Below are positions 3,015 through 31,708 of a stretch of DNA of 35,776 nt, one piece after another. The notes under the pieces were generated by a model. That model was not told the DNA's origin, did no database searches, and worked only from the letters and a program-made list of their open reading frames with translations. This stretch comes from Candidatus Stercoripulliclostridium sp. (GTDB taxonomy: Bacteria > Bacillota > Clostridia > Christensenellales > DTU072): positions 1 to 35,776 of the forward strand of contig JAZRAN010000154.1 of NCBI GenBank assembly GCA_045634605.1, in the 5' to 3' direction. The first letter of the stretch is position 1. Every line of letters starts with the position of its first letter. The translations under genes were made by a program, and so were the position numbers.

Positions 3015-4022
3015 ATGGCAGAAGGCACTACTTGGACAACTTACGACGCTAATAAGATGACGTCAAAAGAAATATATGGTAAGGTTCTTGCCGAGCTAGG
3101 CGAAACCAACAATAAAATCGTAGGAGTGACGGCAGACCTTGCTAAATCCACTAACATAGGCAACTTTGGCGATAGATTCCCGGAACGACTATTCAACGTA
3201 GGCATTGCGGAGCAAGACCTATTTGGCGTTGCTGCAGGATTGGCTAAGACGGGACTTATCCCCTTCGCATCCACTTTCGCAATTTTTGCTTGCTTGCGTG
3301 GTGGCGAACAAATCAGAACGGATATTGCATACCAAAATCTACCCGTAAAAGTTATTGCGACCCACGGCGGACTGAGTTTCGGTCCCGCAGGCTCTACCCA
3401 CCACTGCATAGAAGACTACGCAATTATGCGCGCTATACCTAATATGACGGTAGTTATCCCTGCGGACGGTTTTGAAACCGCCAAAGCAGTACGCGCTTGC
3501 GTAGATATCGATGGACCTTTCTATATGCGTGTTGGTCGTGGCTTTGAACCACCAATGCACGATAACGAAGATTTTGACTTTGAAATCGGCAAGGCAATGA
3601 TGCTAAAAGACGGTAGCGACATAACCGTTATAACTTGCGGTATCCCTACTCTCCAAGCAAGAGAAGCGGCAAAGGACCTAGAAGCGGAAGGTATTAGCGT
3701 AAGGGTACTAAATATGCACACTCTAAAGCCCATTGATAAAGAAGCGATTATGCAAGCGGTAGTAGATACAAGACGTATTCTTACCGTAGAAGAACATAAC
3801 GTTATAGGCGGTCTGGGCGATGCGGTCGCAGCGGTTATTGCGGAAAGCGGTAAGGGTTGCGCATTTACCAAACTAGGTATCCCGGACGAATATGGTGTAA
3901 TCGGTTATCCCGAAGATTTGTATGCAAGATATAAGCTAGACTCGACAGGCATTGCGGAAACCGTAAAAGAACTACTCGGCAAAGAAATAGAAGCCGACGA
4001 AGATTGGGAAGACGAAGATTAA
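3015..4022 (+). CDS. tkt: Transketolase, C-terminal (pyrimidine-binding) subunit
   Basis: 335 aa, with RLFNVGIAEQDLFGVAAGLA, THGGLSFGPAGSTHHCIEDYAIMRAIPNM and VRVLNMHTLKPIDKEAI. The RBS is AAGGAG and the gene sits 12 nt after the N-subunit stop. It ends in an acidic tail, EADEDWEDED. Confidence 0.95.
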   Translation: MAEGTTWTTYDANKMTSKEIYGKVLAELGETNNKIVGVTADLAKSTNIGNFGDRFPERLFNVGIAEQDLFGVAAGLAKTGLIPFASTFAIFACLRGGEQIRTDIAYQNLPVKVIATHGGLSFGPAGSTHHCIEDYAIMRAIPNMTVVIPADGFETAKAVRACVDIDGPFYMRVGRGFEPPMHDNEDFDFEIGKAMMLKDGSDITVITCGIPTLQAREAAKDLEAEGISVRVLNMHTLKPIDKEAIMQAVVDTRRILTVEEHNVIGGLGDAVAAVIAESGKGCAFTKLGIPDEYGVIGYPEDLYARYKLDSTGIAETVKELLGKEIEADEDWEDED

Positions 4023-16891: not shown

Positions 16892-19800
16892 TTAATATTT
16901 GCCTTGAGCAACGTTTACGTAACGTAAATAGCCTTGGTAGTTCCACGCATCCTTCCACAAGGTTTGGAAGTCACCGCCCGTCTTTTGACAGTCTGCCGCA
17001 TATACCTTGCTACTACTGCTTGCGCTCTCCGTAGTACCACTTACGTTCCAGTCGGGAGCATAGCTTGATGAAGTATATCCGTCGGTGTCATAGAAGTATA
17101 CGTGAGCCGTTCCGCTTAGGTAGTTAGTTCCTTCATAACCCCAAGTAAAGCCTGCTTCTATGCTTGCGGGGTCGTATCTTGTACCACCGCCAACGTACTC
17201 TGCGCTTGCCTCGACGTAAACGTTCGTTTCGCCCTTCTTATTACCACTTGATTCGCCTATATAAACGTACATCGGCAGATTTACGTCGCTTGCTTGGTCT
17301 ACCCATAGGTAATGGAAGAACTTGATATATGCCGTACCGCTTATGGAAGTAATATTGCTATTGCTACTATATCCGCAAACTGCCGCTAGGTAAGACTCAC
17401 TGGTTAGGGTGTCGTTAGACCTTCTGTTAACCATCAACTTAGCATTTACGCTTACGGTGTCGATGGTACCGATATTATAGCCTACCGCTCCACCTGCGTA
17501 AATGGTTGACGTATCTGCGCCTGCATCTCCGTGCATTAGTCCGTTAGAGCCGGAAGTCGGGACGTATTCCCTATTATCTGCCGTTACGATTTCGTACGCC
17601 GCAGTAGTCCTGTTGTAATCGTTAGTTGCAGTACTTACACCGCTTATTCCACTGCCCACCAAGTAACCTGCGTTAAAGCCTATCATACCGCCGTACGTAC
17701 CGCCTTCATAAGCCGTTCCTTTTTGACGAGAAGTATAAAGTCTTGCTTTTACGGTTGCATTTTCTACGGTACCAAAGTTTACGCCGACCAATCCGCCGAC
17801 CATAGAGCCGGTAAGAGTGAGCGTATAGTTGCCGGTAGTAGTAACGCTTGCGCCACTAATAGTACCATTGTTATAACCTGCTATACCGCCACCGCCGTAA
17901 TTTCTTACGTTGCCGTTTTCATCCCAAGTAGGAGCGTCAAAGCCTGAAGGCGCGCTATATGAACGAACTTCGGAGTCACTGTCACTCAAAGTAAACGATA
18001 CGTTAGAAATCGTTCTGTTTGCGCCGACTGCGCCTACTATACCGCCTATTGCAATCTTATTATAAGTGCTTGCAAGGCGTGTGTCTATTGCGCTTACGTT
18101 ATCTATTGCAACAAGTCCGGTATCGCTTACGCTTGCTTGAATCGTACCTGCTATACCACCTGCGCCAATACCAAGAGCGCCCATACTGCTTCCATTTACT
18201 ACAGATACGCCCTTGACCGTATATCCGCCGTTCTTACCTTGGACGCTACCGTAGTTGCCGATTGAGCCGACGATACCGCCCGCGCCACCGGTGTAGTCGC
18301 TACCTTGACCAAGATATGAACCGCCTACGGTAGCTACGATATTGAATGATGCGATGCTACTATTGGTGATAATACCATGCTCAAGGCTTTCGCCGGAAAT
18401 GATACCAACTAAACCACCAACGAAGTTGGAGCCGTTTACGGTATTGGAAATACTTGGCGAACCTTTTTCTACGTAGTATACGTTTTCTATGCGACCGCCA
18501 AATACGCTACCTGCTATGATACCTACGTTATTTGCGCTTGCCGCAACGTACGCTCTACCTAGGGCAATATTCTTTACAACGCCACCGCGATAGATTCTGC
18601 TAAAGATACCTACGTTTTCTTTAATGCCGGATGAACGCAAATCTAGTTGTACGTTATATAGAGCAAAGTTACCGCCGTCATAAACACCGTTAAAGCCGTT
18701 TGAGTAATAAACTCCACCGGAAGTGAAAGGCATACACAAAGGTCTATCAAGCGTGTTGTTAACTTCGTTAAGATTGATGTCCGCTACTTGCTTAAAGTGG
18801 ATACGTAATGCTTGACCGCCTGAATATCCGTAGATTAGGTTTGCATTGTTGCCCTTGTAGAGATTATCTACGTTACGCAAATGGTCTACCGTTCTGATCT
18901 TGAAGGGTTTTGCTTCCGAGCCGTCGCCTGCGGTTGCAAGAGAATCGCCACCGTCGAAGGGATAATCGTATAGGCTGATTGCGTTATTTACTCTTGTGGT
19001 AAAGCGTTTTACGTCTACCAAGGGTTCCGCGCCGTCCCATACGCCGTTCGAGTTAGAGTCGGTATATGCTTCGCCGAGATCCCATACGCCGTTAGCATTA
19101 GAGTCGGTTAAAGGCTCTGCGCCGTCCCATACTCCGTTGCCGTTTAGGTCTTCATATTCTTCGCCAGCATCCCATGCGCCGTTATAAACGTATTCATACT
19201 CATTCCACGATGCTTGACCATAGTATACGACGTGTTGAACCTTCTTTGATATCTTAGAGCCGTCAAAGTTTACACCTAAACTAATGTTATCGCTGTCGAG
19301 AACGTTCATGCTTTGAACGATGCGGTTTGCATAATCGCCACTTACTTGACCATCGAAAGTTCTACCTGATAAAATCGGTATTCCGTTAATGGTAATGATG
19401 CCGTCTACAACGTCGTCTACGTCGCCCACGCCACCATCGTTTACGTAGTACGCAACGTTGCCTTGAGCGTCAACCGATTCTTCCACTGAATTAGTATCGT
19501 TTTCTTTTAGGATTTCACCAAGTTCGTTGGGAAGTTTGATTGCAGAGCCAACGTATACGTTATGCAATACTAACGAGCCGTAAGACTCAAAGTTTACGTT
19601 AACGGTCTTTTCTGCGTTTGCGGTAATGACTATTTCCATCAATTCGATTGCGGAATTATATTCATCCCACTCTTTTGCAAGGATCATATCTCTCAAATCG
19701 CCATCTTTAGGTATGGACGAATTGATAGCGTCGGTAGAATTGTTACCATCCCAAACGTTTTGGTTGTTTTCATTTACGGAAGTAATGCCTACGAATCTAT

Positions 19801-22800
19801 CGTACAAGGGGTTAAAGTACGTTGAATCGTTGATATTGCCGGTATAACTGGTAGATAGAGTAAATACGTATTGAGTTCCTACGCGAGCGTTATCTATGGT
19901 AATCATCCTATTACCGGAGACTTCGCCTACGAGTTCCCAAACGCCGTTGACCTTTTGATAGCAGTTTAGCGTGGGCATCGCATCGGTTAGTACTTGGCTA
20001 AAGCCCGATACGTTCGATACCCTTATACTTAATGTATATACGCGTACGTAGCGCGCGAATATCTTGAACGACGCATCCATTAGAACTTGCATTTGCTTGG
20101 TTACGGGGTTGTAGTTATAGGAGATATATTCGCCCGTTCCTACGCCTTGAACGTTCTTTATTTCTTCCGTCTTCAAGTAATAGGTTGTAGCATCAAGTCC
20201 GCTACCTTCAACTACTAATTTGTCATAACTGCTTTCGCTTGCCGTTGCTTCTAGGCGTTGATATCCGCCGTTGCCGTTTTCGGTTATATACCAACCTTCA
20301 AATACGTAACCGGGGATTTCGCCGTGTAGTAGCGTTTGAACGGTATTGTAGTTAAAGTAACCGTTAGAACGAGAAGTGCTGTTAATCTTGGGCTCCGCTT
20401 CGCCTTGACCATCTATGAATATGGTATCGGTGGAAAGCGCGGTAGACTTAACAAGCGTCAAGTTTTCTACCTTTTGGAACAAAGGTCTAATTCTTATCGC
20501 GCTAATATTAGATGATGAAATCCAATTACCGTTGTAATCATATTGCGATGCGTCATAGTTGAATCCACTCATTACGCTTTCATCAATGCCGATATATGCA
20601 GGATAGGTTGAACTAAACAAGCAAGATATCGGGAAGGTGAAGGTGCCCTTGGTTACAAGGTTGGTTTGAGAGTTGGGGTCAACGTAAGGAATATTTCTCC
20701 ACTCATAAGTTCCCGTTACCTTGTTGTATGCGTAGTATTGCCATGCGATAAAGCTAAAGCTGTCGGAAGATTCCGCTCCGCCTATCCAAGATAGCGTTAG
20801 CATATTGTCGTTCCAAGTGTTGTAGGAAGAGCCTGCGTGATTCTTGTTTGAATTATCGATGGTGTTAATCTTGCCCAACATTTGGAATGCGGTATCCGTT
20901 CTATACGAGTTATCTGCGCCCAATCTGGACTCAATGCTGTATGAAGAAGTAAAGTATTGAGTCAAGCTTTCGTCATATACGATAGTAGACGCAGTAATTT
21001 GTCCGGGATTCAAATAGTTACCGCTATCGACGTATTCGTTTTCTACAACAACGTTATATACGGGTATAAATTTTGCTACGATTTCTACGTTATAAGTGGT
21101 CTTTTGAACACCATCCGTAGCGGTAGTACTTTCTACGATATTTACGCCGTTAGGTAGATTGTCAAGGTTATTTAGTACGAAATCGCCTTCATAGGTTGAC
21201 GGATAGTTTTGTCCTAATTGCGTGTAGGAGTTAATTCCGTTGATGAAATATCCCACGAATTGATAGTACTTCTTATAACCTAACAGACTCGTCAAAGTCA
21301 TTCCGATATCATAGAACAATCTATCGTTGTAATCGTAGGTGATGGTTTGCGGTTTGTATCTGTTGTTTGCATCCGCCTTGTTAGCGCTTAGATTTTCGTA
21401 TCCCGAAGACCTATCGGTAAACCAAATGTCATATCCGGTAGCAAAGCTTCCGCTATCGGGTTCATCGGTAAACCACTCGACTCTGGTGGTTACGGAAATT
21501 TGCTTCCAGAACCTAATCTTGAAGATTGAGTTTTCTGCAAGGTGATTGAAGGTTACGGAAACTCTACCGATTCTACCGCCGTTTGCCAAATATGCGTCAA
21601 CGTCGTTTATTACTTCGAACTTATCGTTGTAGTAAACCATCGTTACGCTACCATCCGCCTTTGCGGTAACGGGGCTATAAGTCGAGCTAAATTGCTTGAA
21701 TCCTTGTGCATCGGGAACGGAAAGCGGTAGTAGTTCGAGCATGCTGTCGAATCTAAAGCTTTCTTTGGGGGTAATGTTGACGGTTAATGTTTGATTGGGG
21801 CTCATAGATAGCGAGTTATTAGTCAAGCTACCTACGGTTGCGCCGTCGATTGCGTAAGTTACGCTACCACCTTCGCTCTGTACCTTGGAACCTACGGTTT
21901 CCATAGCGAAACTTATCATCATAGTATTCTTGAAGTATGCGTAAACGAGTCTTTCTTCTAGAGTTTCTACGCCGGAAGTATAGCCGTCTTCACGTTGAGT
22001 GAGCTTGCCACCCACTTCGCTTATTACGCAATAACTATATCCCTTGGTTTCGTTCTTGGAAATGCTATCTCTACCGCGTAGGACTAAGCGAGCGCCACTT
22101 AATACTCTATAAGTATAGGTTGCATCAGCGTTACCATCGGTGTCTTCAAGGATTTCTTGAACGCCTGCTACGTTGGGTAGTATTACTCCGCGGTCTAAGT
22201 TTTCGGTGTAGTTTGCGGTTGCCGTCAAACCTGCGTATTGACGATACTTCATACTGCTCGGATCGTTGTTTGCAAACGAGCCTTCAAAGTACTTGTATTC
22301 AGGATGTATTTGAACGGTTATTTCATATACACGGAAGAATACTGCTCTGAACGTACGGTTAGAAGTCATAGTATAGCGCAATACTTGACCGTTAGATTGT
22401 AGCGTAATACCGGTACCATCGGGGTCGTGAGTTACGTATGACCATACTCCGTTCTTGTATTCTTGGAATCCTTGGAAGGAGTATCTTCTTGCGCCTACGG
22501 CGGGTACGTTGACGGTTATGGTTGCTTCCGTGCCGTAAACGTGAGTAGTTACGTCCTTTCTATCGCTAAACGATGCGCTTACGTTGAATGCTCTGTTACC
22601 GCTTATGGTAGGAATTTGAGCGGAAGTGATTGTGGAGCCCTTGTTTATGACTCTTTCGTTTTCCGTGGTCGCTTCTACCAAATAGGTTTGAACGATGGAT
22701 TCATGCTCGTCAATAGCCACAGTGTAGTATACACGGATGACGTTTTGAGAAGTAGAGTGATAATCCATCATGGAAAGAATTGCATCGTCTAGTTTGACGT

Positions 22801-25800
22801 CTAGTCCGCTTGCCTTCTTGGTAAATAGGTTATAGTTACGGTCAGCCGTTCCTTCCAATGCGAAATTGTACGCAACGGCCAAGGGGTTATTCTTAGGCAT
22901 ATTGTAAAGAGAGACGCCCGTTATAGAATATCCTTCCTTTAGTTCGTGCGCTATGACGTTTTCGGTGTCGAAGATGAATTGATTGTTTTCTAGCGATAAA
23001 CCTAACGTTTCATCGGTGTATAGCGCAGTGATTTGCAAGTTGTTTACAAAGAAGACTACTTCAAACTTTTGCTTTTCATAAGTGGGAAGTATGGTTATCT
23101 TGCTTTGTCCGTTTACAAACGCATCGTTGATTTCTATCTTCTTTTCTCCGCCGCCAAGAGCTGTCGTAGTGGTTGAGTACTTGTAACGCATGCCGTCCTT
23201 TTCGTATACGGTAGGTATGCTAATGCCGTTGACGTCAAGTTTAGAGAGATAATAACCCGCGTCGGAAACGAGCTTGAGTTCAAAGAGTTCGTGGTGGCTT
23301 ACTAACGTAATACCGGTAGATTCATATTGTCCACCGCTGGCTATAACGTATTCGATTGCGTATTGCTTGATAGCGTAGGTTACGTTTACTACTACGTTAC
23401 CGGTCATACTCGGTATAGTGAAAGTACGAGTACCGCTACCATCGTCCGCATCAAGACCGTTTTCGTTTTGTACTAGGCTTGATATAACTCCACCATCATT
23501 ATCCATAGTAATGGAAACGGACGTTATTCTATATCCGTTGGGAGCTGTTAAAGATATGGTTAGTTTGTCCGCAAATACCGCTTCTCCAAGCAATTGTCCT
23601 ACGTCGGAGAAGTTGCCTTCTACGTTAGTGAAGTACTCGCCGTACTCTTTGCCACTTACGTTCTTGTTGATGATTACGCCACTTACTGCGCTTACCTTTC
23701 TTACTACTTCGCCGTTTTGTACGATATCGTAGGTCTTAGCGAAGTCTCCGTTGAAGGTTACGTCATACTTCTTGTTTGCTAGCGTAATTACTATTTCCAA
23801 GTTAGAAGTTACGTGTAATTCGGTATAAGTTCCATAATCTTCTAGCGCATTTGCGATAACGGGCTTTTCATCACCGTTAATCATAACGCTTTCCATAACG
23901 TAACCGCGGTTGATATCAAGCTTAATCGTCATGCTTTGATTCCACTCAACAACGCTAGTGCTTAGTTGAGCAAGACCGCCCGTGAAACTATTTACTGTAA
24001 TGCTATAAGTATGGATGGTGAAAGCTACTTCACAATAAGTATCTTTCTTTACTTCGTAACTTTGACGCATAGTTGCATCTTCGTTTTCTATGCGCTTAGA
24101 TTCTCCGTTAACTTTGAAAGCGGAAATTCTATTGCCTTCTTCAACGTATCCGTTGAATGCGTTATGGGGCATTGCGGAGAATATTACGTTTGCGCCGTAA
24201 GTTACCTTTATGCCGTCTTCCGTTGCCCATATGGTTCCGGTGCTTAATTGACGTACCGCAAGCGTCCATAGTCCATCGGGAGCATTACCCGCTTCGGGCG
24301 CTTCGTCCAAAATAATAATTCCGGGAGCCCAAAGCAATACGTCGTCTACGTCATAGATAGCGTATTCACCGCCTAGGCTAGCTTGCATATCTACTTCAAA
24401 GGTTTGAATTTGATATTTTACGCTAATATCCAAGTCGGAATTGATAGTACCTACGTACGCATTATTTCTTAATGATTTGAGTCTATCTTCGCCGTTAACG
24501 TTAAATACACCGTGAGTATAACCTTCCCCGGGCATTGCTTTAATCGTAAAGTTCAAACCATGTTCATACTTGCCGTTTTCTAGAATTACGGTTGCGTTAG
24601 AATAAGGATTGGTAAATACGGGCTCAAGACTTCCGTTAGATAGCCACGGAGCGCCTTCGCTCTCTATGGTAAGAGTTTGCGTATAGGAATAAGTACGTCT
24701 CTTGAACTCTACGTTTACGGATTGAATATCTCTGGAAATTCCCTTTAAGATATATGAACCGCCGTTTTCGCCAATAGATTCGTTAGAGCCGGTCAAGTTA
24801 ATTCTTTCGGATTGAGTCTTGCCGTTGTCGTCAATATAGATGAGTTCAAATAGCGCGATATAGTATCCACGAGCCGTTCTTGGCGTAATAACGAACTTGA
24901 CGTTACTTCCGTGGATATAGCGCTTGGACGCATCGGGCGCAGAGCCGTTAATAGTAACTACGCCGTAAGAGTTGCTTTCTACGTCTATTGTCTTAAAGTT
25001 AGCGCTTTCATTGGTTGCGTTAACGTTAATTTGATATTCGTTGACGGCATATTCTACTCTAATGGTAATATTACCGCTTACTTCGTCTTTGAGCGTATAG
25101 AATCTTTGACTTAGGTCGTTAGCGGAAACGTTATCTTCCTTCCAATCATCAACTTCTACTCCGTTAACTTTTAGGGATGCAATATGATATCCTACGTCCG
25201 CTTTCATCATTAGAGAAATGATATCTCCAAGGCTTAGTTTTACTTCGCTTGCGGGACGATATGCGTCTTCCCCTTTCTTAACTAGCGTTTCTCCACCCAA
25301 AACCTTGTCAATAGTTATAGAGTATACCATCGGTGAGAATTCTACCGCTAGGTCAACGTTACCGGAAACGTAAAGTTGTAGTCTACCGGAAACGTATTCG
25401 CCACTTGCAATGGGCGTGCCTATTAGATTCGTAGTGGAAACCTTTTCTCCGTTAAGGATTATAGCGCTAATGTAGAAACCGTCGTTAGCGGTAATTTCTA
25501 CGGTCTTGGTTTCGCCGTAATTTACGTTAACGGTACCGGTCGTACCTACGCCACTCAAAGAGCCGTTTGCGCCATGAGTATACGTAAGTTCATATTGAAT
25601 AGGAGCAAATGATGCGGTAATCGTCAATTCGCCGGTTACGTATTCGCCCTTGAATTCATAATTGAGAACGCCGGAAACGTAGTTCTCATATTCGGTGCTC
25701 GTGAGTGGTTGATGTATTACGCTAGAACCTTCTACGGTAATAGCGAATGCGGAAACGTAATAACCTACGTTAGGAGTTAATCTTACGTTGAAAGATTCGT

Positions 25801-28800
25801 TCTTGCGTACTAAACTCTTATCCGTTGCTATTACGCCGTGTTGCGCGCCGGATTGAATGTTTACTGCGTAAACGATTTCTTCGAATACTGCGCTAACGAT
25901 TGCATCTTCTTTTATTGTTAAAGTATATTCGCCGTCAATTAAAGGAACTTCTTTACCGTTTATTACAAGAGTTTTTGCAGAACTTCCCGTGTTTGCGCTC
26001 AATGCAAATTTTACTTGACTGTTAACTTCAAGCGCGCTACCGGAAACAACTGCATTACCATTTCCGTCCGTAACGCTCAATACACCGTTACCTTCCACTC
26101 CGTAAGTAAGAACGTGTTCGCTTGCATTGGCGTCTTCGCCTTCAAAATAGACGTATACGTCTATTGCGGTAGTTACGTCGTAAACGAACAAGGTGGTTAC
26201 TTCATTGCCCAGCATATCGGTAGAAGACAATAGAGAATAATATCCGTTTAATTTGTTTTCTACGTATTCGCCTTCCAGCGGTAGATATTGGTAGGTTTCT
26301 CTTGCATCTTGATTCTTTACGATAATGTTGGCAAGAGAGAGTTCATATCCTTCGGATATGGTAACTGATACGTTGACGTCTCCGCCGTAAGAAACGGTAG
26401 CAACGTAAGTGTTGCCTATAACGCTTTCGTTGTTGATGCTTACTTCGTTATCGGCCTTATTGATTAGGTATACCTTGTAATCCACGCTAATCGGCAAGCA
26501 GTCGATTACTACGGAGTAACTGGCGTTTACGTTACTCAAAGTAATAACGTGCGACTTGGCAAAGAAGTTGGTCGTTTCGTCACGGTCAATGCCCGTATTT
26601 GACTTAACGTTAATCTTGTTGATGTAATAGCCTTCTTTCGCCTTTACTTCAAAGTCAACGGTAGATGCGTGTTCAATATTGTTAAAGGTATAGCCTTCGC
26701 CGTTGACTAGATTGATAGTGCTACCATTATAAGTTATGGAAGTATTGCCTTCTTTTTCTTCAAAACGTACGAAATAAGTAGTTCTTCTGAAAATAAACTT
26801 TACGTCGTAGTCTTTCTTTGCGGCGCTTACTTGGAATTCTCTGGCTAATTGTACGTCGTCAAAAGTTTGTTCTTCTCCGCCGTCGATAACTACTGCGTTT
26901 ACGTAATATCCGCTCGTAGTAGATGCTCTAACGCTAAACGCCTTGTTGTAACCGATAGTAAAGGGCGCGTCAACCGAACCTATGCCTTCGTATGAAGTCG
27001 TTACGTTATAGTATAATTCCGCATATTCAACCGCAAAGGTAACGTCACTTTCTATGCCGTCGATAGAAAGAGTCATCTTCGTTACTCTGTAATCGTTTAC
27101 GCCATCCTTGGGAGCTTGTCCGTTAACAAGGAATTCTCCGTTTTCTGCGTTCTTATATACGGTATATCCGTTTACCGCAACGTATGGGTCTACTATGGTG
27201 CCGTTAGCGGTAACTCTGCGGATATAGTAGCCGTCTTTTGCCGTAACGGAGAATCTGGGCTCGTTGCCCCTTAGGAAAGTTAAACCTTCGCTTTCCGCCA
27301 CCATTTCGCCATATTCGCTTTCCGCAGGAAGAGTTACTCTATACGAGAACTCGCGGTAAGTGATTACTACGTTTTGATTTTCGGTTACGTTTTCTATAAT
27401 GAGATTATAATACGTTGCTTCCGCGGGTACTTGTTGGTTTACGCCGTTGAGAGAAACGGATGCTATGTAATATTGTTTACTACTGGGTTTGTTTTCATTT
27501 TCGGGAACTATTTCAATAGAAATACCGGAGCCGTAGTTTACTTGGGTGAGTACGTTTTCACCAAGTTGACTTTGGGTTTCGTTGGTACCTACTATGCCAT
27601 AGGTGATAGTACCGTTATTGGTAGCGCCACTGCCGTTTGTTATAGATACGCTATATTCACTCAAAGTAAATACCGCTTCTATGCTGTAATCGGAACTTAT
27701 GATTGCATTAATCGTTACGTCATAATATCCGTCTTCACCCGCAAGGTTTTGACCGGAAGTGGTTGCGCCGTTAATGGTTACGGAAGAAAGCGCGTATCCT
27801 TCGGTAGGACGAATTCTAATAGCGTAATCTTTGGTAACGGGCATATCTACTCTGTTGGAAATGCTCTTTTCTATGGCTTCTTCGCCGGGGTTAGCCGTTA
27901 GAGAATAGATGGAACCGGAGCCGATTATGGAAACGGTTAGCGCCTTGGTGTTTTCTTCGAATACCGGCACGACGTATACAACGGGACTTTCTACCTTGAA
28001 GGTCTTATCTACTACCTTAGAAGTGGGAAGTCTGTCTGCGTCCGCAAGATACCAACCTTTAAAACTATAATTGGTCTTAACGGGAATTTCTTCCGGGAAA
28101 GAGCCGGTTACAGCGCCTGCAAGATTGTCTTGATAGTATGCGGTAACTACCCTACCGCTTGCGCCTAGTACGCCGTCTACGTTTTCTTGATATCCATTAG
28201 CGGGGTCGATAAAGGATGGGTCTTCGTTGTCACCTTTTAGGAATACTACCTTATAGATTTCCTTTTCCCAATACGCAACCAGCGTGGTGGGTTGAGTAAA
28301 CGTGGTGCTATTCTTTACTAATACGGGAGAGCCGTTTGCGTTAACTTCGCCGTTTTCGGCATACCAACCCTTAAAGGAATAACCCAACATAGTTAGGTAG
28401 GACGTATCTTCTACGTCGAATACTTGACCTATGGGCGTTTCGTAACTAACGTCGAATAGGTCGAATATCTTGTTGCCCATAGAAGTAAAACTTATATCGT
28501 TTTGGAGTTTTACAAAGTGCGCCTTTACGGAAATAGAATCAACGTATTCGTCGGGAGTAAAACTCAAAACGTATTCTCTTTGCGTGCCGGTGCGCGTAGA
28601 AATAAACTCAATAGCGTAATCTGCGCCCACGTGTACGAGTTTACCACCGCTCATTTCCGGGTCTAGACTTACCCAAGAATTGAGTTCTACGTTATAGACC
28701 GACCAGCCTACAAACTTATAGTCTTGTGAAATGGGAGAAACGCGTACCGTTGCGATTTCGTCCTTTTCATAGAAACTAAGAGCGTCCGTCGTGCCTATTA

Positions 28801-29635
28801 TTTCTCCATCGGGGGAAGTAGTGCATTCTATGCTGAAATCGGTTGCATACTTTTCGTACAAGGGGTAAATGTTGGTGTCTTTGGTTATATGAGTATAATC
28901 AACGTCCCATCCGATAAAACGATATCCGTACATTTGCATATTATGCTCGTCGGCGCGCGGAATCTTGATGGGAGACTCGTTGTAAGCAACTTGTTCTTCT
29001 CTTGCGGTAGTGCCGTCGGGATAATAGAATACTACGGAGTAAACCAATTTCTTGAACGTTGCGACAAGGCGCATACTCTTGGAAACCTGTTTGTCGAGCC
29101 TGTTAGCATTGGGGTTGCCGTCCGACCATCCGGCAAAATAATAACCTTCGTCGGGGATAGCTTCTACGCGAGTCGCATCCGCGCCTGCGCTTACGTTTTG
29201 AACGTTAACGCCGTCTATTCTACCGCCGGTAGATGCAATATATTCGACTTGTAATTCCGTGGGTACTACGTTAAAAGAGACCGTTTGCTTAAATCCACCA
29301 AAGTCCAAAACAACGCCGTCAACGACGCCTTCGGCGCTCGTGTCGAGACCGGTGACCACGAGTTCAGAAAGCGCAACTTGAGCAGACGAGCCGTCACTAT
29401 ACTTGACGGTTACGAAAACTTGCGATGGGTCTGCCCCAACGGAAATAAGCCCGTTATCGGGCGTAACGATAGCAACGACGTCGGGCGTTGTATGTTCCGT
29501 GACGTCCGCATATTGCGGTAATATAACCGCAGCCGCCACAACCGATGCAACTGCTACGACTAAAACGGCTATCATTGTGATGCCTAACATCCCGTTAAGG
29601 GAGAAACGTTTTCCTGTTACTCTTAATTTTGCCAT
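16892..29635 (-). CDS. Giant (4,247 aa) N-terminally membrane-anchored surface protein: InlB B-repeat / Listeria-Bacteroides repeat stalk, EF-hand-like Ca loops and a GLUG-motif C-terminal domain
   Basis: One uninterrupted ORF. I place the start at ATG 29635 (GGAG 8 nt upstream) rather than 29707. The TM helix is LGITMIAVLVVAVASVVAAAVIL. About 9 motifs resemble YYFAGWSDG, YRFIGWDVD, YSFKGWY or YVFEGWY. About 17 resemble GYHIASLKVNGVEV, GFYISAIILNGEKV or GYVMESVMINGDE. There are three DxNxNGVWDxxE loops and about ten GG[ILMA][VIA]G GLUG-like motifs. I see no LPXTG or SLH motif. Confidence 0.9.
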   Translation of the reverse strand: MAKLRVTGKRFSLNGMLGITMIAVLVVAVASVVAAAVILPQYADVTEHTTPDVVAIVTPDNGLISVGADPSQVFVTVKYSDGSSAQVALSELVVTGLDTSAEGVVDGVVLDFGGFKQTVSFNVVPTELQVEYIASTGGRIDGVNVQNVSAGADATRVEAIPDEGYYFAGWSDGNPNANRLDKQVSKSMRLVATFKKLVYSVVFYYPDGTTAREEQVAYNESPIKIPRADEHNMQMYGYRFIGWDVDYTHITKDTNIYPLYEKYATDFSIECTTSPDGEIIGTTDALSFYEKDEIATVRVSPISQDYKFVGWSVYNVELNSWVSLDPEMSGGKLVHVGADYAIEFISTRTGTQREYVLSFTPDEYVDSISVKAHFVKLQNDISFTSMGNKIFDLFDVSYETPIGQVFDVEDTSYLTMLGYSFKGWYAENGEVNANGSPVLVKNSTTFTQPTTLVAYWEKEIYKVVFLKGDNEDPSFIDPANGYQENVDGVLGASGRVVTAYYQDNLAGAVTGSFPEEIPVKTNYSFKGWYLADADRLPTSKVVDKTFKVESPVVYVVPVFEENTKALTVSIIGSGSIYSLTANPGEEAIEKSISNRVDMPVTKDYAIRIRPTEGYALSSVTINGATTSGQNLAGEDGYYDVTINAIISSDYSIEAVFTLSEYSVSITNGSGATNNGTITYGIVGTNETQSQLGENVLTQVNYGSGISIEIVPENENKPSSKQYYIASVSLNGVNQQVPAEATYYNLIIENVTENQNVVITYREFSYRVTLPAESEYGEMVAESEGLTFLRGNEPRFSVTAKDGYYIRRVTANGTIVDPYVAVNGYTVYKNAENGEFLVNGQAPKDGVNDYRVTKMTLSIDGIESDVTFAVEYAELYYNVTTSYEGIGSVDAPFTIGYNKAFSVRASTTSGYYVNAVVIDGGEEQTFDDVQLAREFQVSAAKKDYDVKFIFRRTTYFVRFEEKEGNTSITYNGSTINLVNGEGYTFNNIEHASTVDFEVKAKEGYYINKINVKSNTGIDRDETTNFFAKSHVITLSNVNASYSVVIDCLPISVDYKVYLINKADNEVSINNESVIGNTYVATVSYGGDVNVSVTISEGYELSLANIIVKNQDARETYQYLPLEGEYVENKLNGYYSLLSSTDMLGNEVTTLFVYDVTTAIDVYVYFEGEDANASEHVLTYGVEGNGVLSVTDGNGNAVVSGSALEVNSQVKFALSANTGSSAKTLVINGKEVPLIDGEYTLTIKEDAIVSAVFEEIVYAVNIQSGAQHGVIATDKSLVRKNESFNVRLTPNVGYYVSAFAITVEGSSVIHQPLTSTEYENYVSGVLNYEFKGEYVTGELTITASFAPIQYELTYTHGANGSLSGVGTTGTVNVNYGETKTVEITANDGFYISAIILNGEKVSTTNLIGTPIASGEYVSGRLQLYVSGNVDLAVEFSPMVYSITIDKVLGGETLVKKGEDAYRPASEVKLSLGDIISLMMKADVGYHIASLKVNGVEVDDWKEDNVSANDLSQRFYTLKDEVSGNITIRVEYAVNEYQINVNATNESANFKTIDVESNSYGVVTINGSAPDASKRYIHGSNVKFVITPRTARGYYIALFELIYIDDNGKTQSERINLTGSNESIGENGGSYILKGISRDIQSVNVEFKRRTYSYTQTLTIESEGAPWLSNGSLEPVFTNPYSNATVILENGKYEHGLNFTIKAMPGEGYTHGVFNVNGEDRLKSLRNNAYVGTINSDLDISVKYQIQTFEVDMQASLGGEYAIYDVDDVLLWAPGIIILDEAPEAGNAPDGLWTLAVRQLSTGTIWATEDGIKVTYGANVIFSAMPHNAFNGYVEEGNRISAFKVNGESKRIENEDATMRQSYEVKKDTYCEVAFTIHTYSITVNSFTGGLAQLSTSVVEWNQSMTIKLDINRGYVMESVMINGDEKPVIANALEDYGTYTELHVTSNLEIVITLANKKYDVTFNGDFAKTYDIVQNGEVVRKVSAVSGVIINKNVSGKEYGEYFTNVEGNFSDVGQLLGEAVFADKLTISLTAPNGYRITSVSITMDNDGGVISSLVQNENGLDADDGSGTRTFTIPSMTGNVVVNVTYAIKQYAIEYVIASGGQYESTGITLVSHHELFELKLVSDAGYYLSKLDVNGISIPTVYEKDGMRYKYSTTTTALGGGEKKIEINDAFVNGQSKITILPTYEKQKFEVVFFVNNLQITALYTDETLGLSLENNQFIFDTENVIAHELKEGYSITGVSLYNMPKNNPLAVAYNFALEGTADRNYNLFTKKASGLDVKLDDAILSMMDYHSTSQNVIRVYYTVAIDEHESIVQTYLVEATTENERVINKGSTITSAQIPTISGNRAFNVSASFSDRKDVTTHVYGTEATITVNVPAVGARRYSFQGFQEYKNGVWSYVTHDPDGTGITLQSNGQVLRYTMTSNRTFRAVFFRVYEITVQIHPEYKYFEGSFANNDPSSMKYRQYAGLTATANYTENLDRGVILPNVAGVQEILEDTDGNADATYTYRVLSGARLVLRGRDSISKNETKGYSYCVISEVGGKLTQREDGYTSGVETLEERLVYAYFKNTMMISFAMETVGSKVQSEGGSVTYAIDGATVGSLTNNSLSMSPNQTLTVNITPKESFRFDSMLELLPLSVPDAQGFKQFSSTYSPVTAKADGSVTMVYYNDKFEVINDVDAYLANGGRIGRVSVTFNHLAENSIFKIRFWKQISVTTRVEWFTDEPDSGSFATGYDIWFTDRSSGYENLSANKADANNRYKPQTITYDYNDRLFYDIGMTLTSLLGYKKYYQFVGYFINGINSYTQLGQNYPSTYEGDFVLNNLDNLPNGVNIVESTTATDGVQKTTYNVEIVAKFIPVYNVVVENEYVDSGNYLNPGQITASTIVYDESLTQYFTSSYSIESRLGADNSYRTDTAFQMLGKINTIDNSNKNHAGSSYNTWNDNMLTLSWIGGAESSDSFSFIAWQYYAYNKVTGTYEWRNIPYVDPNSQTNLVTKGTFTFPISCLFSSTYPAYIGIDESVMSGFNYDASQYDYNGNWISSSNISAIRIRPLFQKVENLTLVKSTALSTDTIFIDGQGEAEPKINSTSRSNGYFNYNTVQTLLHGEIPGYVFEGWYITENGNGGYQRLEATASESSYDKLVVEGSGLDATTYYLKTEEIKNVQGVGTGEYISYNYNPVTKQMQVLMDASFKIFARYVRVYTLSIRVSNVSGFSQVLTDAMPTLNCYQKVNGVWELVGEVSGNRMITIDNARVGTQYVFTLSTSYTGNINDSTYFNPLYDRFVGITSVNENNQNVWDGNNSTDAINSSIPKDGDLRDMILAKEWDEYNSAIELMEIVITANAEKTVNVNFESYGSLVLHNVYVGSAIKLPNELGEILKENDTNSVEESVDAQGNVAYYVNDGGVGDVDDVVDGIITINGIPILSGRTFDGQVSGDYANRIVQSMNVLDSDNISLGVNFDGSKISKKVQHVVYYGQASWNEYEYVYNGAWDAGEEYEDLNGNGVWDGAEPLTDSNANGVWDLGEAYTDSNSNGVWDGAEPLVDVKRFTTRVNNAISLYDYPFDGGDSLATAGDGSEAKPFKIRTVDHLRNVDNLYKGNNANLIYGYSGGQALRIHFKQVADINLNEVNNTLDRPLCMPFTSGGVYYSNGFNGVYDGGNFALYNVQLDLRSSGIKENVGIFSRIYRGGVVKNIALGRAYVAASANNVGIIAGSVFGGRIENVYYVEKGSPSISNTVNGSNFVGGLVGIISGESLEHGIITNSSIASFNIVATVGGSYLGQGSDYTGGAGGIVGSIGNYGSVQGKNGGYTVKGVSVVNGSSMGALGIGAGGIAGTIQASVSDTGLVAIDNVSAIDTRLASTYNKIAIGGIVGAVGANRTISNVSFTLSDSDSEVRSYSAPSGFDAPTWDENGNVRNYGGGGIAGYNNGTISGASVTTTGNYTLTLTGSMVGGLVGVNFGTVENATVKARLYTSRQKGTAYEGGTYGGMIGFNAGYLVGSGISGVSTATNDYNRTTAAYEIVTADNREYVPTSGSNGLMHGDAGADTSTIYAGGAVGYNIGTIDTVSVNAKLMVNRRSNDTLTSESYLAAVCGYSSNSNITSISGTAYIKFFHYLWVDQASDVNLPMYVYIGESSGNKKGETNVYVEASAEYVGGGTRYDPASIEAGFTWGYEGTNYLSGTAHVYFYDTDGYTSSSYAPDWNVSGTTESASSSSKVYAADCQKTGGDFQTLWKDAWNYQGYLRYVNVAQGKY
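19025..19195 (-). repeat. 45-nt (15-aa) tandem repeat x4 encoding EF-hand-like calcium-binding loops inside the giant gene
   Basis: The loops are DLNGNGVWDGAE (19150-19115), DSNANGVWDLGE (19105-19070) and DSNSNGVWDGAE (19060-19025), separated by 3-aa linkers. A degenerate upstream unit EYVYNGAWDAGE lies at 19195-19160. The DNA copies share ccgtcccatacgccgtt-type cores. Confidence 0.75.
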
Positions 29636-29674
29636 AATCCGGTCTCCAATGGATTTACGTCGATATATGGCACT

Positions 29675-29703
29675 ATTATATATAATAAAAAGCGCGCACG
29701 CAA
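29675..29703 (-). promoter_or_regulatory. Candidate promoter of the giant gene
   Basis: The minus strand reads TTGCGT (29703-29698), 17 nt, TATAAT (29680-29675). The predicted 5' UTR is about 33 nt and contains GGAG. Confidence 0.4.
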
Positions 29704-29716
29704 GCAACGTACGCGT
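29685..29716 (-). terminator. Rho-independent terminator after the GlmM-fusion gene
   Basis: The minus-strand RNA reads CGCGUACG-uugcuug-CGUGCGCG (8 bp including one G-U) followed by CUUUUUAUU. The stems are 29708-29715 / 29693-29700. Confidence 0.65.
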
Positions 29717-29761: not shown

Positions 29762-31708
29762 TTAGTCCCCGGAGCGCCTATCGACTGCCACTTGACAGGG
29801 CCTTGATATGACGAATTTGTTATCTTCCACGTCACTCGCTACGGTAGTACCGCCGGCAATAAAGCACCTATCCCCTACTTTCAGTGGGGCTATCAAGTTG
29901 ACGTTGCAACCGATAAACACGTCCTTACCTACTTCCGTTTTGCGTTTGACCTTGCCGTTATAATTTGCAAATACCGCGCCACAACCAACGTTCGTTCTTT
30001 CCCCTACCTTAGCATCGCCAACGTAAGCCAAGTGAGCGCATTTTACGCCGTCGCCAAGAGTAAAGTTTTTTATTTCCACAAAGTCACCTACTCTGCACCC
30101 GTTGCCGATTTCCGCCCCTTTCCTAAGAGTTGCAAAAGGTCCTATCGTAGAGTTTTTCCCCACCTTTGCTTGCTCGCAATTGCTAGAACGAATTTCCGTA
30201 TTATCTCCTATTTCCACGTCTAGCAAGTCGCAGTAAGAATAGATTTTTACGTTTTTACCTATTACACTGCTTCCGCGTATAACGTTAAAAGGATATATTA
30301 CGCTACCTTCCCCAATCTTTACCCCTTTTTCTATAAACGTGTTCTCGGGAGAAATTACAGTAACCCCCGTATATTCTTCTATGTTTACTCTTTGGGTATC
30401 CGTTTTAACGCTTTTAGTATTCTCTTTTGGCAAATTATTATTTATGGCGCCAATTACGTAATCCTTTATTTCTTCCACCTTGGCTCTTACCAAATCTTCA
30501 TTTTCCCCTTCCACCAATATTCTTATTTTAGGTTCCGTCCCACTCGCTCTAACGACTACTCTCACCCCACAGCCTTCTATTTTTTGCAAAAAGTTGCTAC
30601 TTCCGTTGACTTCTTCAAAAGATTTCTTTTCTTTCTCCGTAGCCACCACAAAGGTTTCTACGCAAGGATAATCTAGGTAATCTACCCTTTCTTCCAAACC
30701 CTTTTCCGCATCGGCAAGCGTTACCAACAAGGAAATTAATATGCCGTCCCCTGTTTCCGCCCATTTTCTTGCTATTACGTGTCCGCTATTTTCCCCGCCT
30801 AGCAATAGACCGCTTTTTACCATTTCTTCGTACACGAATTTATCCCCTACGTTTGCCCTTACAAACGTCACTCCACGCCCGGCAAACGCTTTTTCCAATC
30901 CTACGTTAGAATTAATCGTACCCACTACGCCACTTGCGCCCAAATATTCGCTTAGAGCGTAAAGAATAGCGTCCCCGCTATACACTCGACCGTCTTTTAC
31001 GCAAATTACCCTATCTCCATCTCCGTCATAAGCAAACGCTAGGTCGTAATCCCCTTTTCTTTCTTCTTCTAGCAAAGGGTCCAAACACGTCGCTCCACAG
31101 TTTACGTTAATTTTTTCTCCGTCATACTCATCGCGCAAAGCCGTTACCACGCAACCTAAATCTTCAAAAATTCTTTTTGCCGTTATTGCGGTTGCGCCAT
31201 AACACACGTCAAGCAATATTTTCTTACCCCTTATTTTATCGCCTACGATATTTTTTAGGTAATCTTCGTATTTGTCCGTCCCAACCAAACACTTAACGCC
31301 CCTTTCTCGCGCCCCCACAGGCTCGATAGCGCGCGTAATTAACGTTTCTATCTCTTTCTCCGCAAAAGCGGAAACCTTCGCTCCTTGCCCCGAAAAAAGC
31401 TTTATCCCATTGTATTCGGGCGGATTATGGCTTGCGGAAATCATTATCCCCAAATTGCACTCGTTGTACTTTGTAAGATACGCAACCGCAGGCGTTGGCG
31501 CTATACCCACGTCTAACACACGCATCCCATAACTTGATAAACGCAACGCAAGCGTTTCCGCTATCTTTTTACCGCTAGTACGGCTATCTCTCCCTATTAA
31601 AACTTTAATTTTCCCGTACTTTTGATATATTGCCGACGCAAATTTAAAAATAAATTCATCGTCAAAGCACTCCGCCTTCGCTCTTATTCCATCGGTGCCA
31701 AAACGCAT
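29762..31708 (-). CDS. glmM: Fusion protein: phosphoglucosamine-mutase-like domain plus GlmU-type left-handed beta-helix acetyltransferase domain (no uridyltransferase domain)
   Basis: 648 aa. The N-terminal ~425 aa carry FGTDGIRA, ISASHNP (phosphoserine loop), AYDGDGDRV (Mg site), GGENSGH and RASGTEPKIRI. The C-terminal ~200 aa read GPFATLRKGAEIGNGCRVGDFVEIKNFTLGDGVKCAHLAYVGDAKVGERTNVGCGAVFANYNGKVKRKTEVGKDVFIGCNVNLIAPLKVGDRCFIAGGTTV, which closely parallels the E. coli GlmU C-terminal domain as I recall it. Confidence 0.85.
   Translation of the reverse strand: MRFGTDGIRAKAECFDDEFIFKFASAIYQKYGKIKVLIGRDSRTSGKKIAETLALRLSSYGMRVLDVGIAPTPAVAYLTKYNECNLGIMISASHNPPEYNGIKLFSGQGAKVSAFAEKEIETLITRAIEPVGARERGVKCLVGTDKYEDYLKNIVGDKIRGKKILLDVCYGATAITAKRIFEDLGCVVTALRDEYDGEKINVNCGATCLDPLLEEERKGDYDLAFAYDGDGDRVICVKDGRVYSGDAILYALSEYLGASGVVGTINSNVGLEKAFAGRGVTFVRANVGDKFVYEEMVKSGLLLGGENSGHVIARKWAETGDGILISLLVTLADAEKGLEERVDYLDYPCVETFVVATEKEKKSFEEVNGSSNFLQKIEGCGVRVVVRASGTEPKIRILVEGENEDLVRAKVEEIKDYVIGAINNNLPKENTKSVKTDTQRVNIEEYTGVTVISPENTFIEKGVKIGEGSVIYPFNVIRGSSVIGKNVKIYSYCDLLDVEIGDNTEIRSSNCEQAKVGKNSTIGPFATLRKGAEIGNGCRVGDFVEIKNFTLGDGVKCAHLAYVGDAKVGERTNVGCGAVFANYNGKVKRKTEVGKDVFIGCNVNLIAPLKVGDRCFIAGGTTVASDVEDNKFVISRPCQVAVDRRSGD

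Follow-up and report, generated by a model that had tools for sequence, protein, structure and literature searches.

Calcium loops that do without an EF-hand helix pair are known from the thrombospondin type-3 repeats, which use ligands at loop positions 1, 3, 5, 7(O), 9 and 12 and form a 'wire' that depends on calcium (1ux6, a structure cited in PMC3123361). In the search for the related Dx[DN]xDG class, Asp was demanded at the first D, Asp, Asn, Ser or Thr at the second, and only Asp or Asn at the third; an extra acidic ligand always follows later in the sequence (PMC3123361). In RTX adhesins, according to one study (PMC7493085), Ca2+ coordinated within the linkers that join one repeat to the next stiffens and extends the protein. 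The 12-residue EF loops of lanmodulin, taken without their helices, bind lanthanides at micromolar affinity and Ca2+ not detectably (PMC9362731); helix-free loops therefore need some other form of pre-organisation. Below, an array of EF-hand-like loops in a giant gene of Candidatus Stercoripulliclostridium is compared with these systems. The window, i.e. the whole stretch of DNA that was analysed, comprises 35,776 nucleotides; all features described in the following lie on its minus strand.

The host protein and its loop array

The host gene is a TTG-started open reading frame of 12.8 kb (16892-29707, stop codon at 16892-16894) for a giant surface protein of 4,271 residues, counted from the TTG at 29707, with matches to the Pfam models Flg_new and Flg_new_2 (InlB B-repeat). 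The true start is probably the ATG at 29635, because the homologues (12/12) all begin with MAKLRV there; the protein would then have 4,247 residues, with the array at residues 3481-3537. A hydrophobic helix read from the translation (MLGITMIAVLVVAVASVVAAAVIL, 29519-29590), which follows a basic stretch, is a probable signal-anchor, and by the positive-inside rule the remainder of the protein would lie outside the cell. The host is best explained as a fibrillar surface protein which this gut bacterium of the Clostridia anchors by its N-terminus.

For the C-terminal head of about 690 residues (16895-18961), AlphaFold2 gave a confident model (pLDDT 75-96), a right-handed beta-helix whose GG[IV][AV]G turns are GLUG-like. 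A Foldseek search with this model gave an IgA1 protease as the best match (7jgj, probability 1.0, E=0.015), followed by beta-helices of the tailspike and pectate-lyase type. The head had been taken for a GLUG domain; the GLUG-like turns are present, but Pfam Glug (PF07581) matches five stretches only weakly and below its cutoff (18.1 bits, cutoff 20.5, E=0.0035), and the fold resembles the IgA1 protease beta-helix. The last stalk module (residues ~3362-3504, 19196-19624), which was modelled with low confidence, closes with ...SW-x-EYEYV, an end conserved in 13/13 homologues. After the array, a linker (PLVDVKRFTTRVNNAISLYDY, 18962-19024) leads to the conserved YDYPF which opens the head, as judged from the homologue comparison and the AlphaFold2 model.

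The array itself occupies 19025-19195, i.e. residues 3505-3561 of the TTG-started frame; the coordinates and unit sequences first given for it are exact. It reads EYVYNGAWDAGE-eye-DLNGNGVWDGAE-plt-DSNANGVWDLGE-ayt-DSNSNGVWDGAE, which corresponds to 15-residue units with a strict period of 45 nt. In agreement with the claim of short linkers without flanking helices, the linkers consist of three residues, two of them containing Pro. Among the 57 residues of the segment are 14 acidic ones, no basic one and no Cys. The oxygen ligands of an EF-hand loop (positions 1, 3, 5, 9 and 12, with Gly at 6) are complete in unit 2 (19115-19150), unit 3 (19070-19105) and unit 4 (19025-19060), whereas unit 1 (19160-19195) lacks those at positions 1 and 3. 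The array had been described as three canonical loops plus a degenerate one. The three loops with full ligand spacing stand; the degenerate first unit is a chimera, in which the C-terminal half of a repeat unit follows the host's own EYEYV. As mentioned above, the last stalk module closes with this conserved EYEYV, and the repeat-free homologues have it as well.

At the DNA level, Tandem Repeats Finder reported 19029-19138 (period 45, 2.5 copies, 77% matches); its sole other match within the gene is a trivial one of 19 nt. The top family in a repeat-family search of the gene has three copies with spacings of 45 and 45, and the remaining families are short, scattered and of 63-89% matches. The array was said to be the only DNA-level repetition of the gene, and it is indeed its only substantial tandem repeat. 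Compared pairwise, the units share merely 21-33 of 45 nt. A relaxed EF-loop pattern matches at the three full units only, among 4,271 residues; 20,000 shuffles of the protein yielded on average 0.02 matches, and none contained three matches or two matches 15 residues apart, which rules out chance or low complexity as the origin of the array.

Copy number and age of the array

A comparison of copy number among related genomes, which had been suggested as a check, gave a difference: 13 full-length orthologues from Candidatus Stercoripulliclostridium carry, at one junction throughout, no unit (nine proteins), four units (three proteins) or 44 units (one protein). In the nine repeat-free homologues, about 12 residues connect the stalk with the head. 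The locus with 44 units is syntenic with the window, and the 4-unit and the 44-unit proteins can be aligned with each other at units one and two and at the last unit. The length of the long array is identical in three assemblies; about one quarter of its units are shortened to 13-14 residues and miss one ligand (orthologue P0005). In orthologue P0004, two units carry Ala or Ser at the position of Gly6. An assembly artefact is ruled out, as independent assemblies share the 4-unit array (P0003, P0004, G008) and the 44-unit array is identical in P0005, P0170, P0171 and G011.

The original prediction also considered the repetition a sign of recent unit duplication, and this idea has to be given up. 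The four units match one-for-one in two orthologues, with a near-saturated synonymous divergence of 0.55-1.2 in the flanks, and they are orthologous across three lineages. Moreover, the array is under purifying selection (dN/dS of 0.027-0.15 versus 0.05-0.09 in the flanks). Unit-for-unit orthology across three lineages together with purifying selection implies that the duplication is not recent.

Other giant proteins of the same genus likewise contain the 15-residue unit, inserted two at a time into their loops. The segment ANKADANNRYKPQT (21344-21385) of the window marks the position at which orthologue P0004 has a separate two-unit insert, ESFTDANNNGKYDLGESYVDSNNNGRWDD; the window segment may be the remnant or the seed of a similar insert.

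A 15-residue repeat and its relation to calcium-loop classes

The array is a member of a widespread family of 15-residue repeats with the pattern x-[FY]-x-D-x-N-x-N-G-x-[WYF]-D-x-x-E. A family profile built from 3-unit windows detected 3,994 protein cluster representatives at E<=1e-3, of which 1,003 reach E<=1e-10 and 161 reach E<=1e-30. Those hosts that could be typed are extracytoplasmic and comprise cadherin/RTX, Big_1 and dockerin proteins, a TonB-dependent receptor and an AI-2E transporter. Conservation of the ligand columns extends to 53 arrays, taken from some 20 proteins that are unrelated to one another. Likewise, in the units of three orthologues, D4, N8, G9, E15, D19, N21, N23, G24, D27 and E30, among others, are invariant or nearly so; loop positions 1, 3 and 5 had played no part in picking the units for this comparison.

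The repeat is absent from Pfam, NCBIfam, the PDB and the searchable literature. Pfam and NCBIfam left it unmatched in the whole protein, in a 117-residue piece, in the 64-residue array, in the 640-residue array of the orthologue and in 20 family proteins. PDB searches with the sequence of the array and with the profile produced only non-significant matches, namely complement C2 sushi domains (by chance), FrpC, calmodulin loops and a double lanthanide-binding tag. Searching the literature for the motif in several notations and for sequence strings brought up nothing relevant.

Two of the profile checks proposed originally, those against the PROSITE EF-hand loop and against thrombospondin type-3 repeats, turned out negative. 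The pattern of PROSITE PS00018 does not match anywhere in the protein, because position 8 is a Trp and E12 is followed by Pro or Ala and not by a hydrophobic residue. Pfam EF-hand models gave no match at E<=10 on the 64-residue array or on the 640-residue array of the orthologue, and neither did TSP_3 (PF02412) and TSP3_bac (PF18884), even on the 640-residue array at E<=10. The array contains none of the cysteines which form the disulfides of thrombospondin type-3 repeats. Dockerin type I (PF00404), a duplicate of a ~22-residue loop plus helix, is not matched by the array, whose period is 15 residues and which has no helices; the RTX nonapeptide model (PF00353, GGxGxDxUx) is not matched either, the period being 15 residues and not 9. 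Still, the motifs DLNGNG, DSNANG and DSNSNG satisfy the residue rules of the Dx[DN]xDG class (Rigden et al. 2011, PMC3123361), and each full unit has, in D9 and E12, the later acidic ligand of that class. The array falls outside the EF-hand, TSP3, TSP3_bac, dockerin and RTX profiles, and three of its units keep the ligand spacing of the EF-hand and Dx[DN]xDG loops.

Structure prediction yielded no confident fold for the array. When it was modelled in context (12 sequences), AlphaFold2 reached a pLDDT of about 40 for the array and low confidence for the last stalk module, while the head was modelled well. The array alone, for which natural arrays were aligned in 53 rows, came out with a mean pLDDT of 45 and devoid of secondary structure, an unusable model. 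EF-hand flanking helices appear in neither of the two models, which are both of low confidence in this region and contain no ions, and the loops are three residues apart.

Proposed role, alternatives and closest counterparts

We propose, with a probability of about 0.6, that the array is an optional, length-variable, calcium-stabilised spacer, a lineage-specific insert of the widespread 15-residue repeat in the stalk/head linker. The data establish the repeat and its family, the variation in copy number, the age of the array and the purifying selection on it; calcium binding, stiffening and the role as a spacer are inferred. Each full unit carries oxygen ligands at loop positions 1, 3, 5, 9 and 12 plus Gly 6, with neither flanking helices nor disulfides. 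At the millimolar Ca2+ concentration outside the cell, each unit or pair of units would wrap one Ca2+ ion, and the aromatics of linker position 2 and of loop position 8 would pack on one another. A floppy acidic segment would in this way become a compact, stiffer spacer, which sets the reach and the freedom of the head relative to the stalk. The original prediction had proposed a calcium-dependent hinge or rigidifier. Its placement in the linker that leads from the last stalk module to the beta-helix head is correct; a general role as a hinge is not supported, given that 9/13 full-length homologues manage with a direct join of ~12 residues and one orthologue carries 44 units. The range of 0, 4 or 44 copies argues for an optional spacer and not for a conserved hinge, and as most orthologues lack the array, its function is dispensable.

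The strongest competitor, which we nevertheless regard as unlikely, is a metal-free, intrinsically disordered acidic linker, in effect a flexible tether or entropic spacer, whose pattern is kept for solubility or protease resistance. The low AlphaFold2 confidence and the missing secondary structure are what one would expect of such a linker, and the helix-free lanmodulin loops, which bind no detectable Ca2+ (PMC9362731), point in the same direction, as do the Gly6 exchanges in P0004, the shortened units in P0005 and the dispensability of the array in nine homologues. On the other hand, columns 1, 3, 5, 6, 9 and 12 stay invariant over thousands of unrelated proteins, as they do not in disordered linkers, the aromatics are found at fixed positions, and a dN/dS of 0.03-0.15 is as strict as that of the folded flanks.

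The strict 15-residue period, two aromatic positions per unit that could stack as a core, and arrays of up to 44 units would also suit a beta-solenoid or beta-roll in which each coil takes 15 residues and Ca2+ is bound between successive coils in place of one ion per loop, in the manner of the RTX beta-roll or the Ca2+-dependent antifreeze beta-helix. We consider this highly improbable: the unit is often found as an isolated two-unit loop insert, which is too short for a solenoid, RTX models are unmatched, and AlphaFold2, usually good on solenoids, gave no strands. There is equally little to be said for a binding element in place of a spacer, for example one that adheres via Ca2+ bridges to acidic glycans, mucin or mineral surfaces of the gut. 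The dense Asp, Asn and Glu residues and the adjoining putative adhesive head would fit this reading, as would the fact that an outer-membrane receptor and other giant surface proteins also have the unit in exposed loops. Against it, no lectin or carbohydrate-binding family matches, and a copy range of 0-44 looks more like that of a spacer.

Beyond the calcium-stabilised spacer at this junction, a wider idea is offered tentatively, at somewhat less than even odds. The repeat may constitute a new, widespread family of helix-free and disulfide-free calcium-binding units, a modular and length-tunable 'calcium spring or spacer' which, throughout the bacteria, enters the loops and linkers of extracytoplasmic proteins in the form of doublets and is able to grow from 0 to >40 copies per site. 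The aromatic residue (Trp or Tyr) at loop position 8 suggests that the units might even behave as natural lanthanide-sensitising tags. For the gene in the window, the result is modest, the array being an accessory spacer and no key mechanical element. More generally, a short repeat of thousands of otherwise unannotated bacterial surface proteins receives a name and a testable function, and it could found a new domain-family entry, since none exists in Pfam or NCBIfam. The series of 0, 4 and 44 copies at one orthologous junction is a natural experiment on how spacer length and calcium influence the distance that a fibrillar adhesin can reach. Should the units indeed bind metal with neither helices nor disulfides, a compact natural scaffold would be available for calcium- or lanthanide-binding designs.

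How does the array relate to known systems? With the EF-hand loop of calmodulin it shares the 12-residue loop (D1, N3, N5, G6, a hydrophobic residue at 8, D9, E12); unlike EF-hands, it is extracellular, tandem and present in up to 44 copies, and has neither a helix-loop-helix nor a paired four-helix domain. The PDB entry nearest to the profile is a double lanthanide-binding tag on ubiquitin (3vdz, E=0.39, a resemblance only); this tag, engineered from an EF-hand, demonstrates that two loops in tandem are able to fold around metal ions without helices. The self-processing module of FrpC (6sjw, DLNGNGIIDNGAE) has a nearly identical local motif (DLNGNG..D..E; E=0.19, not significant), but there the loops belong to a folded autocatalytic domain, in contrast to a tandem 15-residue repeat. 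The conceptual likeness to thrombospondin type-3 repeats, which had been pointed out originally, is apt: both are extracellular, contiguous, helix-free loops of the DxDxDG type with the same ligand spacing. The array differs in that positions 3 and 5 are Asn in place of Asp and position 12 is Glu, in its conserved aromatics and its fixed period of 15 residues, and in lacking cysteines and disulfides. The proposed role, calcium between modules that stiffens a giant adhesin, is that ascribed to the linkers of RTX adhesins (MpIBP or LapA-type BIg repeats) in PMC7493085. There, the ions are held by residues of the beta-sandwiches at each linker; here, a dedicated and optional repeat would do the same at a single junction.

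A periodic loop array between stalk and head

The largest ORF of the window (16892-29707, reverse strand; 4,271 codons counted from TTG) encodes a giant surface protein, in which four 15-residue units (EYVYNGAWDAGE-EYE-DLNGNGVWDGAE-PLT-DSNANGVWDLGE-AYT-DSNSNGVWDGAE) occupy positions 19025-19195 on the same strand, i.e. residues 3505-3561 of the TTG-started frame. The original prediction of a loop array with a 45-nt period was confirmed by three approaches. Tandem Repeats Finder reported 19029-19138 (period 45, 2.5 copies, 77% matches) and just one other, trivial match of 19 nt within the giant gene; a repeat-family search gave as top family three copies spaced 45 and 45, the remaining families being short, imperfect and scattered along the gene. 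A relaxed EF-loop pattern matched the giant protein at three sites, all in the array; in 20,000 protein shuffles the mean number of matches was 0.02, and neither three matches nor a pair 15 residues apart ever occurred.

The protein comprises a basic N-terminus, one hydrophobic helix, InlB-B / Flg_new-type repeats and a C-terminal region of ~690 residues, the head. As all 12 full-length homologues begin with MAKLRV, translation probably starts at the ATG at 29635 and not at the TTG at 29707, which gives 4,247 aa. For the head, AlphaFold2 produced a confident beta-helix model (pLDDT 75-96); the best Foldseek match was IgA1 protease 7jgj (probability 1.0, E=0.015), with beta-helices of the tailspike and pectate-lyase type ranking next, and Pfam Glug scored slightly under its cutoff. 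The array thus lies, as had been proposed, in the linker that joins the last stalk module to the head. Unit 1, initially regarded as a degenerate copy, is not decayed: its first half, EYEYV, represents the conserved terminus of the last stalk module, and homologues without any repeats have it as well.

The host genome is a MAG of 1.6 Mb in 260 contigs. The genes around the giant ORF are ordinary cellular ones: a PotABCD-type ABC transporter, an HTH-cupin regulator, a GH38 mannosidase and a PGM/hexapeptide fusion. The latter (29762-31708, reverse strand; 648 aa) joins a complete phosphoglucomutase/phosphomannomutase (four PGM_PMM domains) to a C-terminal hexapeptide-repeat (LbH) acyltransferase domain and adjoins the giant gene in orthologous loci too. 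Upstream of the giant gene and in the same orientation, a 744-aa ORF (33481-35715, reverse strand) with weak Big_2 and right-handed beta-helix matches may encode another surface protein.

Copy number, age and spread

The 12 homologues show 47-90% identity over the C-terminal 830 residues. At the junction, P0003 (90%) and P0004 (83%) carry four units, P0005 (61%) carries 44 units spanning ~660 residues, and P0006-P0014 (47-65%) carry none; in these, …W-x-EYEYVDG-x-L is followed by ~10 residues and YDYPF. In P0005, whose locus is syntenic with the window, the spacing is 15 in 27 of the 42 measured cases and otherwise 13-16, apart from one of 30, which marks a missed unit; the array length is equal in three independent assemblies carrying point substitutions relative to one another. 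In a maximum-likelihood protein tree, computed after removal of the array, the 44-unit lineage, the 4-unit clade and one 0-unit clade share one well-supported clade, with no order among the three supported, and all outgroups have 0 units. As the first two units (…EYEY-x-Y-[DN]-G…E-x-YEDLNGNG…) and the last one (…YTDSN-x-NGVWD-x-AEPL) can be aligned between 4-unit and 44-unit proteins, the simplest history is a single origin at the junction, after which the copy number changed 11-fold.

The four units match one-to-one across the window, P0003 and P0004. dS is 1.3-2.2 in the array and 0.55-1.5 in the flanking 300 codons; dN/dS of the array is 0.027 (window versus P0003), 0.13 (window versus P0004) and 0.15 (P0003 versus P0004), and 0.05-0.09 in the flanks. 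These values indicate that the duplication is old relative to the three lineages and that purifying selection acts on the array; the recent unit duplication suggested at first is thus unsupported. Within the window, the units agree at 21-33 of 45 nucleotides. Units 3 and 4 have 33 of 45 in common, as many as each shares with its P0003 orthologue, which would be compatible with some local gene conversion. The DNA-level repetition stems in large part from amino-acid constraint.

Of 61 related genomes, 22 belong to the genus, and six of these contain the repeat; the other 39, which represent other genera of the same family or order, lack it. The usual form in these six, and at a second site of the window genome, is a two-unit insert (E-x-F-x-D-A-N-x-N-G-x-[WY]-D-E-G-E-E-F-x-D-x-N-x-N-G-x-[WY]-D), the second loop often missing E12, in beta-sandwich module loops of other ORFs of 3,000-9,000 aa. 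In the window genome, the doublet EKFTDANGNGVWDEGEELVDVNKNGVWDAG (C27:6135-6224, repeat locus L005) lies in such a loop of a giant ORF (at least 3,066 aa) that contains MBG-like YG/NYN repeats. P0004, and also the related genome G008, has an extra doublet, ESFTDANNNGKYDLGESYVDSNNNGRWDD, at a second stalk site (residues ~2739-2780); its window counterpart ANKADANNRYKPQT (21344-21385, reverse strand) may be a remnant or seed of a doublet insert. The 44-unit array fits a 90-nt period (73-79% matches) better than a 45-nt one (65-67%), and the window linkers alternate (EYE, PLT, AYT, PLV). Together with the second-site doublet of P0004, these periodicities tentatively suggest that the doublet is a unit of insertion and duplication. 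Open frames of ~9,000 aa in two genomes of the same genus (G008:C149 and G012:C28) also carry a doublet insert; this genus, with its small genomes (1.4-2.0 Mb), seems to be characterised by giant surface proteins.

A widespread repeat family

A profile built from 3-unit windows of three orthologues (A1) was searched against 1.84 billion cluster representatives and matched 3,994 proteins at E<=1e-3, 1,003 at E<=1e-10 and 161 at E<=1e-30; most of the best 150 of the 3,994 contain 4-25 matched stretches. The family consensus is x-[FY]-x-D-x-N-x-N-G-x-[WYF]-D-x-x-E. The few hosts with a source name are all annotated as 'hypothetical protein', one being from a Gammaproteobacteria MAG, and typed domains in the hosts are extracytoplasmic (cadherin-like with RTX repeats, Big_1, dockerin, TonB-dependent receptor, AI-2E transporter). 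A SusC-like TonB-dependent receptor and an AI-2E family transporter (P0023 / P0029) contain the array as an insert, which shows that it can ride on membrane proteins as well as adhesins. Among the top matches, about one quarter of the units with strict periodicity, stemming from few proteins and left out of the family alignment, have cysteines at unit positions 5 and 14 and a proline at 11; this variant may be a disulfide-stapled form nearer TSP3.

Pfam and NCBIfam gave no match over the arrays, even for a 640-residue array at E<=10. A PDB sequence search found no significant relative, the best non-significant hits being 3vdz (a double lanthanide-binding tag fused to ubiquitin) and calmodulin loops, and full-text literature searches for the motif found no description.

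Loop class and proposed role

The original interpretation holds in part. Units 2-4 follow all residue rules for an EF-hand loop as well as those for the broad Dx[DN]xDG class (PMC3123361), the later acidic ligands included. In membership tests, however, the array belongs to none of EF-hand, TSP3, dockerin and RTX, and its units do not match the PROSITE pattern PS00018 due to W at position 8 and P or A after E12. It is best filed, judging from sequence, as a tandem calcium-loop repeat that is helix-free, disulfide-free, widespread and in no catalogue.

The array is missing from nine orthologues and reaches 44 units in another, so its role must be accessory, which excludes an obligatory hinge; it may tune how far the head reaches, how flexible it is or how exposed. 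The family-level finding and the series of 0, 4 and 44 copies are the parts that deserve follow-up.

Several observations speak against a calcium-stabilised spacer: AlphaFold2 gives the array no confident structure, Gly6 is replaced in two P0004 units, one quarter of the P0005 units are shortened, and isolated EF loops of lanmodulin bind lanthanides, not Ca2+ (PMC9362731). The columns kept invariant across thousands of family proteins coincide exactly with the ligand positions, Gly6 and two aromatic positions, which argues for a metal-organised fold and not a featureless linker. Because of these columns, the ligand rules, the acidic segment (14 acidic residues, 0 basic) and a ligand spacing shared with thrombospondin type-3 repeats, in which helices are lacking too, a calcium-stabilised spacer is the reading we favour. 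Such a spacer would be similar in concept to the calcium-stiffened linkers of RTX adhesins (PMC7493085).
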